From: Chlamydiae bacterium RIFCSPHIGHO2_12_FULL_49_9
Lineage (GTDB): Bacteria; Chlamydiota; Chlamydiia; Chlamydiales; SM23-39
Reading direction: 5' to 3'
NCBI GenBank assembly: GCA_001794935.1
Contig: MGLY01000019.1
Location: forward strand, 7,030-36,974
Length of the DNA stretch: 29,945 bases
Below are positions 23,030 through 29,377 of the stretch, piece by piece. Position 1 is the first letter of the stretch. Every line of letters begins with the position of its first letter. Under the pieces are notes generated by a model, which was not told the DNA's origin, made no database searches, and was given only the letters and a program-made list of their open reading frames with translations. Made by a program: the position numbers and the translations under genes.

Positions 23030-25027
23030 ATGAATTCCCAGCCAGTCGGATCGCCAGAGCGCAAGCGGCTCGTCATCATCGCCGTTTTTCTGTCGGTTCT
23101 CTTTTGCTTTCTCATCATTCGCTTCTACTACATCCAAATCGTAGAAGGGGAAAAGTGGACGAAGGTCGCTCTCGCCCAGCACCAATACGTCGCCACCGTT
23201 CCCTTTATGCGCGGCTCTTTTTACTCAAATACTGAGGTCAAGAGGGGCCATCCGGGAGAGGATCAGCCCTTTGTCGTAGACGTTCCGAAATTTCACCTCT
23301 TCATCGATCCCGATTCGATTCCTGAAGGATGCAAGAAGAAGATGGTGGAGCAGATGTCCCATCTCCTCCAGACTCCCAAAGAGAAGCTTATCTTTGAGTT
23401 TTACCGCAAAAGCCGCAGTCGAAAAATAGCGAGCTGGCTGAGCCGCGAGCAAAGACAAAAGGTGGAGCAGTGGTGGAGTGAATTGATCAAGACGGAGAAG
23501 GTCGTCAGGAACGGGATTTTTTTCCTTTCCGATTATCAGCGCTCCTACCCGTTTGGAACCATGCTCGGTCCGGTTCTTCACACCGTTCAGGGAGATAAAG
23601 ATCCAGAAACGGGCCAAAGTTTGCCAACGGGCGGACTTGAAATGCTCTTCAACTCCTATTTAAGGGGAAAGCAGGGAAAAAGGTTGATTGTCCGCTCTCC
23701 GCGCCATCCTCTCGATACCGGAAAAATTTTGGAAGCTCCGGAAAATGGCGCCGATATCTATTTGACCATCAACCACTACCTGCAAGCGATTGCTGAAACA
23801 GAGCTTGCCAAAGGTGTAAAGACTGCAAATGCCAAGGGCGGCTGGGCTGTCATGATGGATCCGAGAACGGGAGAGATTTTAGCGTTGGCCCAAATGCCCC
23901 CGTTTGATCCGTCTCGCTATGCCGATTATTTCAACGATCCAAGCTTGCAAGAGAGAACGAGAGTCAGGGCGGTCACCGACTGCTTTGAGCCGGGCTCGAT
24001 TTTCAAGCCGATCACGATGGCGATCTGTTTAAAAGCCAATGAAGAGTTGAAGGCCAAGGGGAAAAAACCAATTTTTGATCCCGATGAGAAAATCCCCACA
24101 GTAAACGGCTGGTTCCCCGGGAGGAGCACACCTTTAAAAGATGGGAGAACTCACGCCTTTCTCAACATGGAGATGGGACTTCAAAAATCCTCAAACATCT
24201 ACATGGCGCGCATTGCTCAAAGACTTGTCGAGACGATGGGGGATCAGTGGTATAGGAGCGCCCTTTCAGATCTCTTTGGTTTCGGGAAAAAAACGCAAAT
24301 CGACCTTCCCGCTGAAAGTGGGGGCTTGGTTCCCACTCCGGGGAAACTCCACCCAAACGGGAAACTCGAGTGGTCTTTGCCTACGCCTTATTCCCTTGCA
24401 ATTGGCCACAACATCTTAATCAACAGCATCCAGATTGTGAGAGCTTACGCGATCATCGCCAACGGCGGCTACGATGTGCAGCCTCACCTGGTTCGAAAGA
24501 TCGTGAAGAAGAAAGAGGACGGGAGCCAGCAGATTCTCGTCGACAACACGGCCTATCGCGGCGGCAAGCCTATTTTGAGCAGTCAGATTACAAAGAGGAT
24601 CGTGAGGGGACTTAAATACATTACGAAGGAAGGGGGCACTTCGAAAAGAGCCGACATCTCGGGATATACTGAGGCAGGAAAATCGGGGACGTCGGAAAAG
24701 ATCGTTGATGGGATCTACTCAAAAGATCATCATATCTCTTCCTTTTTGGGGTTTGCGCCGGCAGATAACCCGCGGTTTGTGCTTCTCATCTCTCTCGACG
24801 ATCCGGAAAAGAAGTTTATCCCGGGAGTGGGCAAGCACCAGCATGGAGGTGTCTGTGCGGCGCCGATCTTTAAAGAGATCGCCACCCGATCGCTCCAGTA
24901 TCTCGGGGTTGCCCCCGATGACCCATATGGTTATCCGCCGGGAGATCCGAGACGCGATGCGAATCGGGCCGACTGGACTTTGCAAGTGCAAAAACTCAAA
25001 GAGCTCTACGAGAGCTGGAATCGATGA
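23030..25027 (+). CDS. ftsI: Penicillin-binding protein 3 (FtsI)
   Basis: FEPGSIFK (SxxK), KSSN (SxN), GKSGT (K[ST]G); N-terminal TM helix. Confidence 0.96.
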   Translation: MNSQPVGSPERKRLVIIAVFLSVLFCFLIIRFYYIQIVEGEKWTKVALAQHQYVATVPFMRGSFYSNTEVKRGHPGEDQPFVVDVPKFHLFIDPDSIPEGCKKKMVEQMSHLLQTPKEKLIFEFYRKSRSRKIASWLSREQRQKVEQWWSELIKTEKVVRNGIFFLSDYQRSYPFGTMLGPVLHTVQGDKDPETGQSLPTGGLEMLFNSYLRGKQGKRLIVRSPRHPLDTGKILEAPENGADIYLTINHYLQAIAETELAKGVKTANAKGGWAVMMDPRTGEILALAQMPPFDPSRYADYFNDPSLQERTRVRAVTDCFEPGSIFKPITMAICLKANEELKAKGKKPIFDPDEKIPTVNGWFPGRSTPLKDGRTHAFLNMEMGLQKSSNIYMARIAQRLVETMGDQWYRSALSDLFGFGKKTQIDLPAESGGLVPTPGKLHPNGKLEWSLPTPYSLAIGHNILINSIQIVRAYAIIANGGYDVQPHLVRKIVKKKEDGSQQILVDNTAYRGGKPILSSQITKRIVRGLKYITKEGGTSKRADISGYTEAGKSGTSEKIVDGIYSKDHHISSFLGFAPADNPRFVLLISLDDPEKKFIPGVGKHQHGGVCAAPIFKEIATRSLQYLGVAPDDPYGYPPGDPRRDANRADWTLQVQKLKELYESWNR

Positions 25028-26466
25028 AGATAAAGCAGCTTTTCAAGGGATTTGAAGTTGAGATTCGGGGGAGCAAAGAAGTTGAGATTACGGGGATCTC
25101 CACCGACTCGAGAACAACTTCGCCAGGTCATCTTTTTATCGCAAAAAAAGGGACGCGCTTGGATGGCGCTCAGTTCATCGAAAGGGCAGTGGGCGCCGGC
25201 TCACCCGCAATCTTAACCGATCTCTACGATCCGTTTTTAAAAGTGACCCAAATGATTTCTTCTAATCCGGCGGCTTTGGAAGCAAGGCTCGCCGCCAGAT
25301 TTTATCAAGAGCCCTCCAAAGAGCTCTTCGTCGCGGGGGTGACGGGAACAAAAGGGAAAACGACGACGACCTATCTGATCAAGCACCTCCTCGACGGATT
25401 AAAATTGCCCTGCGGTCTAATTGGAACGGTCGAGACGATCATTGGGGAGAGCCGCATCGATTCGACGCTGACTACCCATCCGGCCGCCTTAAATCAAAAA
25501 CTCCTTCGAGAAATGGTTACAAAGGGGTGCAGGGCGGCAGCGCTCGAGGTCTCATCGCACGGCCTTGTTCAGGGAAGAGTTGAGGAAGTAAAGTTCGATA
25601 TCGCCGTTTTCACCAATCTCCATCCCGATCATCTCGACTATCATAAAACGGTGGAAGAATATGCGGCAGCGAAAAAAAGGCTTTTTTGTCAGGCTCCCAT
25701 CTCTATTTTTAACGCAGACAGCCCCTGGTCAGACTACATGGCCAAAGGGGTGGCGCGCAAGAAGACGTTTGGAATTGAGACTGCCGCCGATCTTCAGGCG
25801 AAAAATATCCGCTTCACAAGAAACTCCACAGAGCTCGATCTCCTCTATCAGGGGCGCAGAGTTCCCGCTCAATTTCTCCTCCTGGGGAGATTCAATGTGT
25901 ACAATTTCTTGGCCGCTGCCCTTGTTGGAGTTGAAAGGGGAGCCAAGTTGGAAGAGATCCTGTCGATCCTCTCTACTTTTAAAGCCGTTCCGGGAAGACT
26001 TGAAGAAGTGAAAAACGGGAGGGGGATCTCCCTTTTCGTCGACTACGCCCACACGGGAGAGTCTTTAGAGAATGTGCTGAAAACGCTGAAAGAGATCGCA
26101 GAAAGACGCCTGATTGTCGTTTTCGGCTGCGGCGGCGGAAGAGACCCGAGGCGAAGAGTCGAGATGGCGCGATCTGCCGAAAAATGGGCCGATCTTTCGA
26201 TTGTTACGTCCGACAATCCGAGAAATGAAGATCCAAATGAGATTGCCCGCCAGATCCTCTCCGGATTTGAAGATCCGGGAAAAGCGTCTTTAGAACTCGA
26301 GAGAAAGAAGGCGATCGCGATGGCCATCAGGTTGGCTCAGCCCCAAGACATCGTGCTGATTGCAGGCAAAGGGCACGAAAAGGTTCAGATCTTTGCTCAC
26401 CAAACTGTTCACTTCGACGACGTCGAGGCGGCAAAAGAGGCGCTTGCAATCTCCGGCCCATTTTGA
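25024..26466 (+). CDS. murE: UDP-MurNAc-Ala-Glu:meso-DAP ligase MurE
   Basis: GVTGTKGKTTT, LEVSSHG, FTNLHPDHLDYH, VDYAHT, SDNPR (DAP-specific), LIAGKGHE. Confidence 0.97.
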   Translation: MKIKQLFKGFEVEIRGSKEVEITGISTDSRTTSPGHLFIAKKGTRLDGAQFIERAVGAGSPAILTDLYDPFLKVTQMISSNPAALEARLAARFYQEPSKELFVAGVTGTKGKTTTTYLIKHLLDGLKLPCGLIGTVETIIGESRIDSTLTTHPAALNQKLLREMVTKGCRAAALEVSSHGLVQGRVEEVKFDIAVFTNLHPDHLDYHKTVEEYAAAKKRLFCQAPISIFNADSPWSDYMAKGVARKKTFGIETAADLQAKNIRFTRNSTELDLLYQGRRVPAQFLLLGRFNVYNFLAAALVGVERGAKLEEILSILSTFKAVPGRLEEVKNGRGISLFVDYAHTGESLENVLKTLKEIAERRLIVVFGCGGGRDPRRRVEMARSAEKWADLSIVTSDNPRNEDPNEIARQILSGFEDPGKASLELERKKAIAMAIRLAQPQDIVLIAGKGHEKVQIFAHQTVHFDDVEAAKEALAISGPF

Positions 26467-26491
26467 GAAACTGGACTCAAAAAGGTTTTTA

Positions 26492-26656
26492 GGAAGCGTG
26501 ACGAAATATCTTAAAAGATTTTGCGGCCATCATGGCAGCCCATCTTTGAGCGATCGTTCGTCGCCCATATTGCGACAATATGGGTCTCCTCTCGATCGCT
26601 CAAATCTGAACCACCCTGAAGCCACCAAATCTTTTAACTTATTTTGTCACACTTCC
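26492..26656. mobile_element. 165-bp palindromic MITE/RPE-like element (family 2, GGAAG ends)
   Basis: Terminal 30-bp inverted repeats with 4 mismatches. Inner stems TTTGAGCGATCG (26545-26556/26593-26604) and CCCATATTG-cga-CAATATGGG. TTA direct repeats at 26489-26491 and 26657-26659. Confidence 0.85.
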
Positions 26657-26659
26657 TTA

Positions 26660-27346
26660 GTGCAATTTCTCCTTTTCTTTTTGGCCCTTCTGATCCCTTT
26701 TGCGTCGCATGCCGCTGCAAAAAAGGATAGAGGAGCGCCCCTCGGCACATTCATCGCCGGCGAGCCAACAGCCCCCATGATTGTGATCGATGCGGGTCAC
26801 GGAGGGACCGACCGGGGAGCGCGCGGCTATGTGCCCTACTGCGAAGAGAAAAAACTCTCTTTGCAAACAGCCCGCCTCGTAAAAAAATATCTCGATCAGC
26901 TCGGCTATCACGTCATCATGACGCGGAGTACCGATTGCTTTATTCCCCTCTCCAAACGGGTTGATGTGGCCAATCAGTCTACCTCCAATATTTTCGTCAG
27001 CGTCCACTTCAACTCATCGAGGAACTCGACAGCCCATGGGGTGGAAGTTTTTTTCCCCGACTCAAAAGAAAAATCGACTCGAAGCTCCTCATCAAAAAAG
27101 CTTGCAGACGCGATTTTGGGAAGAGTGATTCGACGCACTTCCGCCCATTCCCGCGGGGTCAAAAAGGGAAACTTTTATGTGATTCGGGAAACGAGGATGC
27201 CAGCTGTTTTGGTTGAGGCGGGTTTTATCTCCAACCCCGAGGAGCGCTCTCTCTTAAGAACGCGCGAATATCAGGAAAAGATCGCCCGCGGAATTGCCGA
27301 CGGGATCGATCGCTACTTCAAAGATCGCTGGCGCTCTGCGACTTAG
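26660..27346 (+). CDS. amiA: N-acetylmuramoyl-L-alanine amidase AmiA (Amidase_3)
   Basis: IVIDAGHGGTDRGA, EEKKLSL, LSKRV..AN, FVSVHFNS, AVLVEAGFISN; follows murE as in Chlamydia. The start is uncertain because the frame stays open upstream through the palindromic element. Confidence 0.93.
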   Translation: MQFLLFFLALLIPFASHAAAKKDRGAPLGTFIAGEPTAPMIVIDAGHGGTDRGARGYVPYCEEKKLSLQTARLVKKYLDQLGYHVIMTRSTDCFIPLSKRVDVANQSTSNIFVSVHFNSSRNSTAHGVEVFFPDSKEKSTRSSSSKKLADAILGRVIRRTSAHSRGVKKGNFYVIRETRMPAVLVEAGFISNPEERSLLRTREYQEKIARGIADGIDRYFKDRWRSAT

Positions 27347-27504
27347 TACCCTCCCACAAAAATTTTCAGGAATTTGACCATCTTTTCCCGCCCAGCTTTG
27401 CGCTCGAGCTCGACAACTTGATGCAAGTTGCCGTCGCTCTCCGCGCTTTGCTGGACAGAAAAATCTGGGCACAAATTCTTTTGAAAATTTTTGTGGTCAG
27501 GTAC
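27346..27504. mobile_element. 159-bp palindromic MITE/RPE-like element (family 3, TA-flanked GTACC ends)
   Basis: TA|GTACC...GGTAC|TA. Perfect 15-bp inverted repeat CCACAAAAATTTTCA (27354-27368/27482-27496) and central hairpin CAACTTG-atg-CAAGTTG (27414-27430). Confidence 0.8.
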
Positions 27505-29377
27505 TAGCGATTTTTTGTGAGAGAAGTCTTTCGACCAGGGAGAACAATTGGGGGGCGTTTTCCGGACATTTTTCTCTTGCAAGGTGTCCAAATCGCCCCA
27601 AATACTTATCTCGAAAAGCGATGAGATTTTCCCTGCTTAAATAGGATAAATATTCTTGATATCCTGTGAGCTTTTCCTTGGGGACATTCTCAAGAATGCT
27701 CTTCAAGCTAAACCAAAAAACGAGCTCTAAAAATCCGGTGAATTTAGATTTATTTTCAGAGGAATTAAACGGTATAAATGCGGCATCGAAAAAGCGGATC
27801 CGCTCTTCGGGGAGAATCGAAGAGATAGCAATTAAAGCTCTTTCAAAAAGAACATTTTCCTGGTCCTTGTCTGAATTTTCAAACCACTGAATATAAGTCC
27901 TGTAGCTTTGAGCGTTTTTTTGAAGATCGCAAAATAGGCGCTCAATATCGCTCCCAATTTGAATCTCTTCGCTTCGGCGCTCAAGCTCCATCAGGAAATA
28001 GATTGCGGCATCGATGTGGAATTCTTTGACTTGGCGGTGCGCTTTTTTAAGAATTAAGTTGGAAAGAGGATGTTTTTCAATCGAATCCCAAGCCTTTAAA
28101 ATGGAGAAATTTCTTCCCCAGGAGTCGATGATTTTTTGGAAGAGTTCCTTCTCTCTTTTATCCGTGAGCGAAAGGATTTTTGACTCCACGGTTGCGATGA
28201 TTGTCTTGGCTTTAAGAGTTTTGTTAAAAAGGAGCCTAATCATCAAAAAAGGTGTGTTGAACAAATAGGAAACTTCTGTGTAGATCCTTCGAAAAAAAAG
28301 GTGATCTTTGAGAGAAAAGGGAGCGCTCAATTGTGCGAGGAGAAATTTAATCTCACTCTCTAAGCTGAGATCTTTATAATACTCGATGGTCTGTCTAGAA
28401 ATAGGCTGAAAGCGGTGTTTGGAAGGGTGGCATGCCCCATAGTCTACATAAAGGGAGTTGCCTTTTGAAATCGGAACAATAGGAAAGATGACAAAATGGG
28501 GGAAACCTCCCACCTCCACCCTCTCGACAACGCAATTTGGCATTCCGTCGGGGATCAAAGAAAATAAATTGCATGCGGTCCTACAATTGAGTTCTCCGAT
28601 CTGGTAAGAGGGATATTCGGGCACATCTCCAATTCTTCCTCCCCAAACTCCAATAACGCCTGTCTCAATATCGATCTCTTTTCCAGCAACGATCCTGTGA
28701 CGCCCATTTTGCCGAGGGATAACGCTGATCGGAAAAGGAGGGAGCGCTCTTTGCACATCTAAAGATGCAGTCAGGTAGGCGTCAAAACTCTCTGGGGCGG
28801 GCGCGCCTTGGCATGCGAGATGTCTTTGAGCCCAATACTGGATTAGACTCTCTCTCGTGGCGCTGGTTCCCACACAAAAAGAGGCTCCTCCAAAAAGTTT
28901 CTGGAATCTCGCAGCAGTCAACGGAGATTTTTCTTGGGTGAAGGGATCGATCACTTCTGCCCCGGGAATTTTCCCCGCCCATTTTTCATTTCCAAGAACT
29001 CTTGTCAGTTCGGAGAGGGAAGGGAGGAACAACCGGCGCATTTTGGCAGCAGCCAGAAGCATTTTGCTCATCTCTTTGTCTTCAGTGATCTCCGCATAGT
29101 GGAGGGGGGTCCAGCCGATCCGATCTTCCGGAAAGGGATTTGCCTTTTTCTCCAAAAGTTCTTCGACGAGTTTTCGGTTTTGGGAGAGAACTGCAAGCGC
29201 AAATGGGGTGAGCTTATAGATCTGATGTGGGTCGTCAGGCCCTCCCCGTTTATCGATCTGAGCCAAGATCGTCTCATTCGGTTGACCCAGGGCGACCATA
29301 AAATGGGGGATCAGTTTCCGATCTACGGGGGGATAAAGCTCGCGAGGGAAAAGTCGTGTAAGGGGAAATGCCGTCAT
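27497..29377 (-). CDS. Ankyrin-repeat protein with degenerate SET-like domain (candidate effector)
   Basis: Ankyrin repeats LTPFALAV..LLEKKAN and GWTPLHYA (about aa 55-112). SET-like IVAGKEI..GVIGVWGGRI..CNLFSLIPDGMPN..FVIFPIVPISKGNSLYVDYG (about aa 215-320). Helical C-terminal half. Confidence 0.7.
   Translation of the reverse strand: MTAFPLTRLFPRELYPPVDRKLIPHFMVALGQPNETILAQIDKRGGPDDPHQIYKLTPFALAVLSQNRKLVEELLEKKANPFPEDRIGWTPLHYAEITEDKEMSKMLLAAAKMRRLFLPSLSELTRVLGNEKWAGKIPGAEVIDPFTQEKSPLTAARFQKLFGGASFCVGTSATRESLIQYWAQRHLACQGAPAPESFDAYLTASLDVQRALPPFPISVIPRQNGRHRIVAGKEIDIETGVIGVWGGRIGDVPEYPSYQIGELNCRTACNLFSLIPDGMPNCVVERVEVGGFPHFVIFPIVPISKGNSLYVDYGACHPSKHRFQPISRQTIEYYKDLSLESEIKFLLAQLSAPFSLKDHLFFRRIYTEVSYLFNTPFLMIRLLFNKTLKAKTIIATVESKILSLTDKREKELFQKIIDSWGRNFSILKAWDSIEKHPLSNLILKKAHRQVKEFHIDAAIYFLMELERRSEEIQIGSDIERLFCDLQKNAQSYRTYIQWFENSDKDQENVLFERALIAISSILPEERIRFFDAAFIPFNSSENKSKFTGFLELVFWFSLKSILENVPKEKLTGYQEYLSYLSRENLIAFRDKYLGRFGHLAREKCPENAPQLFSLVERLLSQKIAST

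Follow-up and report, generated by a model that had tools for sequence, protein, structure and literature searches.

Evidence for a hairpin MITE insertion between a Shine-Dalgarno-like motif and the conserved start codon of the division amidase gene amiA in a chlamydial genome

The division amidase gene amiA of a metagenome-assembled chlamydial genome has almost certainly received a mobile-element insertion between the Shine-Dalgarno (SD)-like motif AAAGG and its start codon. The element is a 165-bp MITE (non-autonomous hairpin transposon) located at positions 26492-26656 of the window and recognized by its repeats, its hairpin structure, and its related copies; it is open in the amiA reading frame, and two start codons, GTG 26660 downstream of the element and GTG 26498 within it, have to be considered for AmiA. 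An earlier note, based on the letters of this DNA, had proposed a mobile-element insertion at the translation start of amiA; this proposal was borne out by terminal inverted repeats, a target-site duplication, and copies in the same and in other genomes, and the insertion site was found to lie exactly after the SD-like AAAGG and before the start codon common to AmiA homologues.

The window, i.e., the whole 29,945-nt stretch of DNA analysed here, represents positions 7030-36974 of contig C19 in a metagenome-assembled genome (MAG; G000) of 1.32 Mb, which comprises 93 contigs, is 79% complete, and has a G+C content of 48%; its best protein relatives are labelled as Chlamydiota or Parachlamydiales bacteria and come from metagenomes. 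The sequencing runs that hold the locus are groundwater and soil metagenomes, with no RNA run among them. On the plus strand, the gene order is ftsI (PBP3-like; 23030-25027, assigned from its open reading frame and a profile match), murE (UDP-MurNAc-tripeptide synthetase; 25024-26466, with matches of its open reading frame to the Pfam profiles Mur_ligase_M, Mur_ligase_C, and Mur_ligase and the stop codon TGA at 26464-26466), and amiA (N-acetylmuramoyl-L-alanine amidase; 26660-27346), which encodes 228 aa when read from the conserved GTG and was assigned through the Amidase_3 profile and an alignment of homologues. The amiA product covers positions 1-173 of the 174 positions of the Amidase_3 profile (E = 4e-58), and its predicted signal peptide, VQFLLFFLALLIPFASHA (26660-26713), aligns with the hydrophobic leaders of homologues, with cleavage expected after AHA. 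The AAAGG motif (26481-26485, plus strand) was read from the sequence and has a putative SD function.

Two other structures are present next to these features. An imperfect small hairpin (CCATTTTGAG / CTCAAAAAGG) at 26458-26491 holds the murE stop codon and AAAGG, followed by TTTTT; it may act as a weak terminator of murE or in translational coupling, and was not called by the terminator scan. A second MITE, which belongs to another family and is flanked by TA, occupies 27344-27506 and starts at the amiA stop codon, and amiA hence has a hairpin element on either side. The contig depth of this second MITE is 50-185, compared to approximately 5 in its flanks, and the element clusters with a copy located in frame inside an M20 peptidase gene (G000:C22:20459-20622).

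The 165-bp element starts with GGAAG, ends with CTTCC, and carries on either side a copy of TTA (26489-26491 and 26657-26659), which form a perfect target-site duplication. A comparison of the two arms showed that the 17-nt terminal inverted repeats (left, GGAAGCGTGACGAAATA, 26492-26508; right, 26640-26656, with the reverse complement GGAAGTGTGACAAAATA) match at 15 of 17 positions; the arms as a whole (26491-26527 and 26621-26657) extend over 37 nt with 84% complementarity, and a second arm pair is found further in, with a central core hairpin at 26518-26629. As RNA, the element is predicted to fold into one long hairpin of -76.7 kcal/mol, compared to -33.2 +/- 3.9 kcal/mol for 200 shuffled sequences (z = -11.2). 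The element contains no transposase gene; its sole open frame is a read-through of 55 sense codons in the amiA frame (57 with both TTA copies), and the remaining five frames hold two to four stops each. Together with one TTA copy, the insertion adds 165 + 3 = 168 bp (i.e., 56 codons), such that the frame is kept without a stop in the amiA phase; the probability that one given frame is open by chance was 0.07 with base shuffles and 0.04 with palindromic shuffles. In silico deletion of the element and one TTA yields AAAAAGG-TTTTTA-GTG, with an upstream frame that reads DSKRFL-VQFLLFFLALLIPFASHA; in this reconstruction AAAGG is 6 nt from GTG 26660, compared to 174 nt at present, a displacement of 168 nt. 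The palindrome with its TTA direct repeats and coordinates, the 55 sense codons in the amiA frame, and the restored junction and frame had all been described in the earlier note and were verified in the sequence.

The in-frame GTG at 26498-26500, which lies within the left terminal repeat, is the start of the public gene call (P0001), which is 100% identical to the protein described here and has a length of 282 aa, 54 residues more than the 228-aa form; this additional stretch is basic, rich in Ser and Pro, and lacks a hydrophobic run. A promoter and terminator scan of the element and its surroundings called nothing, including no sigma-70-like promoter in or after the element and no terminator after the stem, where a T run is also lacking. 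The sole Rfam match, to a model of a plant MITE-derived miRNA, was rejected (28 bits, compared to a threshold of 200).

Evidence for an insertion also comes from the same junction in relatives, where the murE-amiA order is kept in 27 of 29 loci. The murE-amiA gap is 193 nt in the genome studied here and 25 nt once the element is subtracted; in the nearest relatives, as far as the junction allowed both genes to be mapped, the gap is a few to approximately 25 nt or the two genes overlap, and several relatives carry an AGG/GAGG-type motif just ahead of the AmiA start. Likewise, the open frame for amiA mostly spans 204-259 aa in relatives, compared to 328 aa here. The position of GTG 26660 is where 14 of 17 aligned AmiA homologues begin, with the pattern M(R/K/Q)xxLxLL; one homologue (P0007) starts with MQ, as does the amiA product when read from GTG 26660, and the remaining three comprise two homologues with one extra residue and one (P0084) with a long extension. 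In P0084 (274 aa), the extension places approximately 55 residues ahead of the hydrophobic leader, and it may represent a further upstream insertion that is read in frame. Other genera of the family have short murE-amiA spacers without the element; the empty site is demonstrated only above the genus level, because no genome of the same genus was among the relatives compared and the next best AmiA protein, in a search of 5.8 billion proteins, is 77% identical.

Other palindromes, of approximately 140, 90, and 250 bp, were observed in the murE-amiA spacers of G009 (L023), G013 (L024), and G012 (L025), respectively; the amiA frame is open through the palindromes in G013 and G012, and in G012 neither an ATG nor a GTG is found between the palindrome and the hydrophobic leader. 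The idea that this spacer is an insertion hot spot or under selection (four genera, three of them open in frame) was rejected, because such loci occur at approximately 64 per Mb in the own genome and its MITE families are rich in open frames.

With regard to the state of the locus in natural populations, contigs from two groundwater runs (X1 and X2) span the entire element with 0 differences. A soil run from another study (X3) yielded one contig with the murE end and the first 13 nt of the element, and a separate contig with the last 30 nt of the element and amiA, both with 0 differences. The element is real DNA and not an assembly artefact, and the insertion is fixed across contigs from three runs and two studies; no contig in runs X1-X4 joins position 26491 to position 26657, in data where contigs drop rare variants.

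The earlier note had assigned the palindrome to a repeat family, and a copy search that covered the own genome and 300 genomes of the chlamydial order identified related copies in the own genome as well as in G264, G012, and G241. In the own genome, amiA-type ends occur at three sites, the amiA copy and two 42-bp mini copies (C76:12415-12456 and C79:29462-29503), which share the same ends and have different internal junctions and which appear to have arisen separately from amiA-type elements by loss of internal sequence. The 112-bp core (26518-26629), which is 74-79% identical to MITEs with other ends, shows 77-79% identity to approximately 10 copies of a 166-bp family in the own genome that has quite different ends (TACTGCGCCCAC...) and TA flanks (TA/TACTG ends); a copy on contig C9 is intermediate and differs from the amiA copy only in the outer approximately 16 nt. 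The nearest paralogue of the amiA element is 78-79% identical, over the core only, and with its imperfect arms and lack of a close paralogue the amiA element looks old.

Outside the own genome, a full copy with 80% identity and TAA flanks is present in G264, which belongs to another family of the order. Copies that end in GGCGTCGTAAGCAAATA were found in G012 and G241, and those G012 copies that are intact have TTA or TAA as flanks; overall, GG...AAATA-ended copies with TTA/TAA flanks occur in three genomes, and all five intact copies of this kind that could be delimited have TTA/TAA on both sides (L044, L045, L183, L054, and L190). Variants with other ends were found in G012 and G250 (in G250 as shorter core matches), and matching ends in G148, G189, and G264. 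A search with the 17-nt end pattern against a 596-Gb contig collection returned 117 matches, nearly all of which are chance matches as the pattern is too short; the only real match was to the chlamydial MAG behind G189.

The central hairpin is common to copies across families, with a stem that is kept despite base changes. In several chlamydial families it is combined with four or more kinds of ends (26518-26629 of the window as well as L045, L046, L053, L183, L186-L189, L052, and L057), and the inner stem may differ in sequence yet still pair (CCCATATT../..AATATGGG compared to GAGATATT../..AATATC). Since the core seems better kept across copies than the ends that a transposase would recognize, sequence comparison identifies the amiA element as a member of a modular MITE superfamily with a conserved core and exchangeable ends; this superfamily is apparently old and now inactive. 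In the own genome, a total of 84 palindromic loci of up to 400 bp, 55 of them 160-199 bp in size, account for approximately 1% of 1.3 Mb, and these loci form at least 10 multi-copy families with different ends and nearly equal size.

A transposase element with amiA-type ends was found neither in the own MAG nor among the end pairs and IS5-family loci of the other genomes. In the own MAG, which is 79% complete as noted above, PF01609, PF13586, and PF13358 remained unmatched, and the only transposase trace is a DUF4096 fragment (G000:C1:6201-6431), near which no amiA-type ends occur. The paired ends in G012, G241, G264, and G250 are in every case separated by 45-326 bp, a MITE-like size; in G189 and G148 the ends run into non-MITE sequence before the contig breaks, and the interior is unassembled. 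DUF4096-type IS5-family elements, which measure 850-930 bp, are present in 81 of the 300 genomes of the order, and seven clear cases delimited by BLAST have TTA/TAA flanks (L217, L219, L223, L232, L234, L240, and L241); therefore, the right kind of enzyme exists in the clade. None of 30 IS5-family loci carries amiA-type ends, and the likeness between IS5-family ends (GAGGGTGTTC.. and GAGACTTTCTC..) and MITE ends is not significant, with best-score shuffle P values against 11 IS ends that range from 0.03 to 0.73 depending on the MITE end used. The GG...AAATA ends and the TTA/TAA duplication would fit mobilization by an IS5-type transposase, and the type of duplication weakly suggests such a link; the earlier note had likened the GGAAG ends and T-A targets to IS5-family ends, and of the features compared here the 3-bp TTA/TAA duplication matches that of the IS5 elements of the order.

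The open frame is a trait of the family. The frame of the core (FCGH..SPS..DRSS..IL) is also open in a G012 copy (L045) with approximately 70% DNA identity, the core frame of the 166-bp TA-flanked family is open on both strands, and the 84 palindromic loci hold 131 open frames, compared to 59 expected from shuffles. Given this family-wide openness, the open frame of the amiA copy needs no locus-specific explanation, and since openness is common in or outside genes, the coincidence with the amiA frame is weaker evidence than the value of 0.07 would suggest. The superfamily may have been built or filtered to be readable, and the open frame is no sign of a new AmiA domain.

In the own genome, MITEs that encode 55-56 residues are located in frame inside an RlmN and an M20 dipeptidase. 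In the M20 peptidase (G000:C22:19939-21579; L213), 64 residues are present where the solved homologue 4mmo has 9 (query 167-231 aligned to chain 115-124); in RlmN (G000:C22:3302-4471; L212), 67 residues are present where the solved homologue 6fz6 has 11 (query 78-146 aligned to chain 158-170); in both cases the extra residues correspond to a MITE copy. Based on these alignments, behaviour like that of the Rickettsia palindromic elements (RPEs) holds for this genome, which makes translation of the amiA copy more plausible from the outset. For amiA itself, the RPE-like extension claimed in the earlier note is only possible, as the conserved start lies downstream of the element. Two further open reading frames contain such elements: a glycosyltransferase-like frame (G000:C11:2676-3962; L214) is open through a MITE at residues 59-117, and an 852-codon frame (G000:C79:26119-28674) holds a TA-family copy in frame after an N-terminal membrane- or signal-like segment. 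Among 50 cases of open elements beside long open reading frames, 17 were in phase, compared to 11.3 expected; this excess, by a rough estimate about 2 sd, involves related copies and was not relied on.

The earlier note had posed the alternative that the insertion either separated amiA from its ribosome-binding site or added about 55 aa ahead of the signal peptide; this proved to be the right framing, and the public gene call takes the extension. Our preferred reading, to which we would give about an even chance, is that AmiA is still started at the conserved GTG 26660. The MITE almost certainly entered the murE-amiA spacer, then 25 nt long, at a TTA that became duplicated, and the element-free junction would read murE-AAAAAGGTTTTTA-GTG. 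In the transcript, the element would fold out as a stem with AAAGG 6 nt before its base and GTG 26660 3 nt after it, and the SD-like motif and the start codon could again come close in space, at a distance comparable to an ordinary SD spacing with one helix width added. The sequence downstream of the stem is pyrimidine-rich and unpaired in the fold, and this stretch could also recruit ribosomes without an SD. Cleavage after ..ASHA, a site predicted with the -3/-1 rule, would remove any MITE-encoded extension, so that mature AmiA would be the same from either start; if this site is used, the identity of the mature protein would explain why the insertion is tolerated in a key division gene. The insertion is tolerated and amiA is intact; compared to the nearest relative (G001), AmiA is 73-75% identical and MurE approximately 60%. 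The N-terminus of the 282-aa public AmiA model is probably wrong, or at least unproven.

Several observations speak against initiation at GTG 26660. The SD-like motif is no longer directly before this codon, and the last 17 nt before the TTA form the 3' arm of a very stable stem. Hairpin-bridged initiation across a stem-loop of 165 nt would draw on an analogy with small natural examples. In addition, the sole open frame of the element (one of six) is the amiA frame, which represents a coincidence of 0.04-0.17 if the extension is never read, and gene callers favour GTG 26498.

Translation from GTG 26498, which we consider clearly less probable though still a serious contender, would produce a 282-aa precursor whose first 54 residues, encoded by the MITE, precede the signal peptide as an RPE-like extension; this basic, Ser/Pro-rich segment would serve as an elongated n-region and would be cut off on export if the predicted site is used. 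This reading accounts for a frame that is open in exactly the amiA phase (the only one of the six frames) and agrees with the 282-aa public call. GTG 26498 is located 12 nt downstream of AAAGG and 32 nt downstream of the murE stop codon, so that ribosomes that have finished murE could reinitiate at this codon. The in-frame and presumably translated MITEs in RlmN and the M20 peptidase of the same genome provide precedents, as does the palindrome ahead of amiA in G012, which is open in frame and has no ATG or GTG before the leader. However, the start position shared by 14 of the 17 aligned homologues is GTG 26660, and lengths range from 190 to 274 aa among the 120 homologue matches listed, below the 282 aa that this start would give. 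GTG 26498 is also buried in a stem of -77 kcal/mol and has poor SD spacing, either 12 nt from AAAGG or 1-3 nt from AGGAAG, and copies of these MITE families often have an open frame, in genes as well as outside them. A broader version, which we put forward tentatively, is that the 54 MITE-encoded residues are translated as an AmiA leader and that the superfamily, as carried by environmental chlamydiae, combines its conserved central hairpin and interchangeable ends with a unit of approximately 168 bp (56 codons) shaped for read-through; if so, different transposases would serve the ends and the element could live inside or before essential genes.

It is improbable that amiA lost its ribosome-binding site through the insertion, or that the element blocks transcriptional read-through from murE, such that AmiA is poorly made or not made at all and the gene is decaying. 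The displacement of the SD-like motif by 168 nt, the very stable hairpin in the murE-amiA transcript, and the lack of a sigma-70-like promoter call in or after the element are consistent with impaired expression, but amiA contains neither a frameshift nor a premature stop, its product matches Amidase_3 over the full profile, and its conservation relative to G001 exceeds that of murE; moreover, the element looks old, judging from its imperfect arms and the lack of a close paralogue, the insertion is fixed in three samples, and no T run follows the stem, where no terminator was called. A native regulatory hairpin between murE and amiA (for example an attenuator, a processing site, or a small RNA) rather than mobile DNA is the least probable reading, since its strong structure and a central hairpin conserved across families and genomes are set against its absence from this locus in the relatives examined, the TTA/TAA-flanked copies at unrelated loci, and an Rfam match far below threshold.

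MITEs, their effects at gene starts, and in-frame insertions of the RPE type are already known, as described in PMC10969869 and PMC5896051; our literature search found no description of MITEs specific to Chlamydiae. The amiA copy is of interest for the exact site of the insertion, after the SD and before the start codon, for its two possible starts, and for the core-plus-ends build of its superfamily. The amiA locus indicates that a selfish hairpin can settle in the short interval that separates the ribosome-binding site of an essential division gene from its start codon and leave the gene intact, and it represents a natural test case for either start-codon use across a large folded-out hairpin or a long cleavable leader. 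It also illustrates that MITEs can make up approximately 1% of a 1.3-Mb chlamydial genome and be found in frame inside housekeeping enzymes, as in Rickettsia.

Among known systems, Tourist-type and IS5-derived MITEs carry a 3-bp TTA/TAA duplication, and IS1031-type elements represent the corresponding IS5 elements in the ISfinder groupings. The amiA element resembles these MITEs in its TTA/TAA duplication, GG-starting ends, small size, and lack of transposase coding; it differs from them in that no transposase element with amiA-type ends was found and in that the likeness of the ends is not significant. Correia elements of Neisseria are hairpin MITEs of 100-160 bp that are located beside gene starts or ends, where they become part of the transcript and can influence expression or the processing of RNA; they carry a TA duplication, promoter parts, and an IHF site, none of which was found in the amiA element. 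In phage T4 gene 38, a stem-loop brings a far-apart SD and start codon together, and known cases of this kind bridge approximately 20 nt, compared to 165 nt that would have to be bridged in amiA, where such a mechanism is suggested by analogy.

The closest parallels in behaviour come from intracellular bacteria. RPE-1 to RPE-10 are described in PMC10969869 (with reference to Ogata et al. 2000) as palindromes of approximately 150 bp in an obligate intracellular host, whose reading frame stays open and which can be translated within host proteins. Like the RPEs, the MITEs of the chlamydial genome occur inside proteins, where they add 55-56 residues to RlmN and an M20 peptidase; unlike the RPEs, to which they show no sequence relation, the amiA copy has clear terminal repeats and a TTA duplication and is located before a conserved start rather than in the mature protein. 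Similarly, QMITE1 and QMITE2 of Coxiella burnetii can fuse in frame with host open reading frames (PMC5896051; mentioned in PMC10969869) and are, like the element described here, MITEs of an intracellular bacterium; they are unrelated to it in sequence and host phylum.
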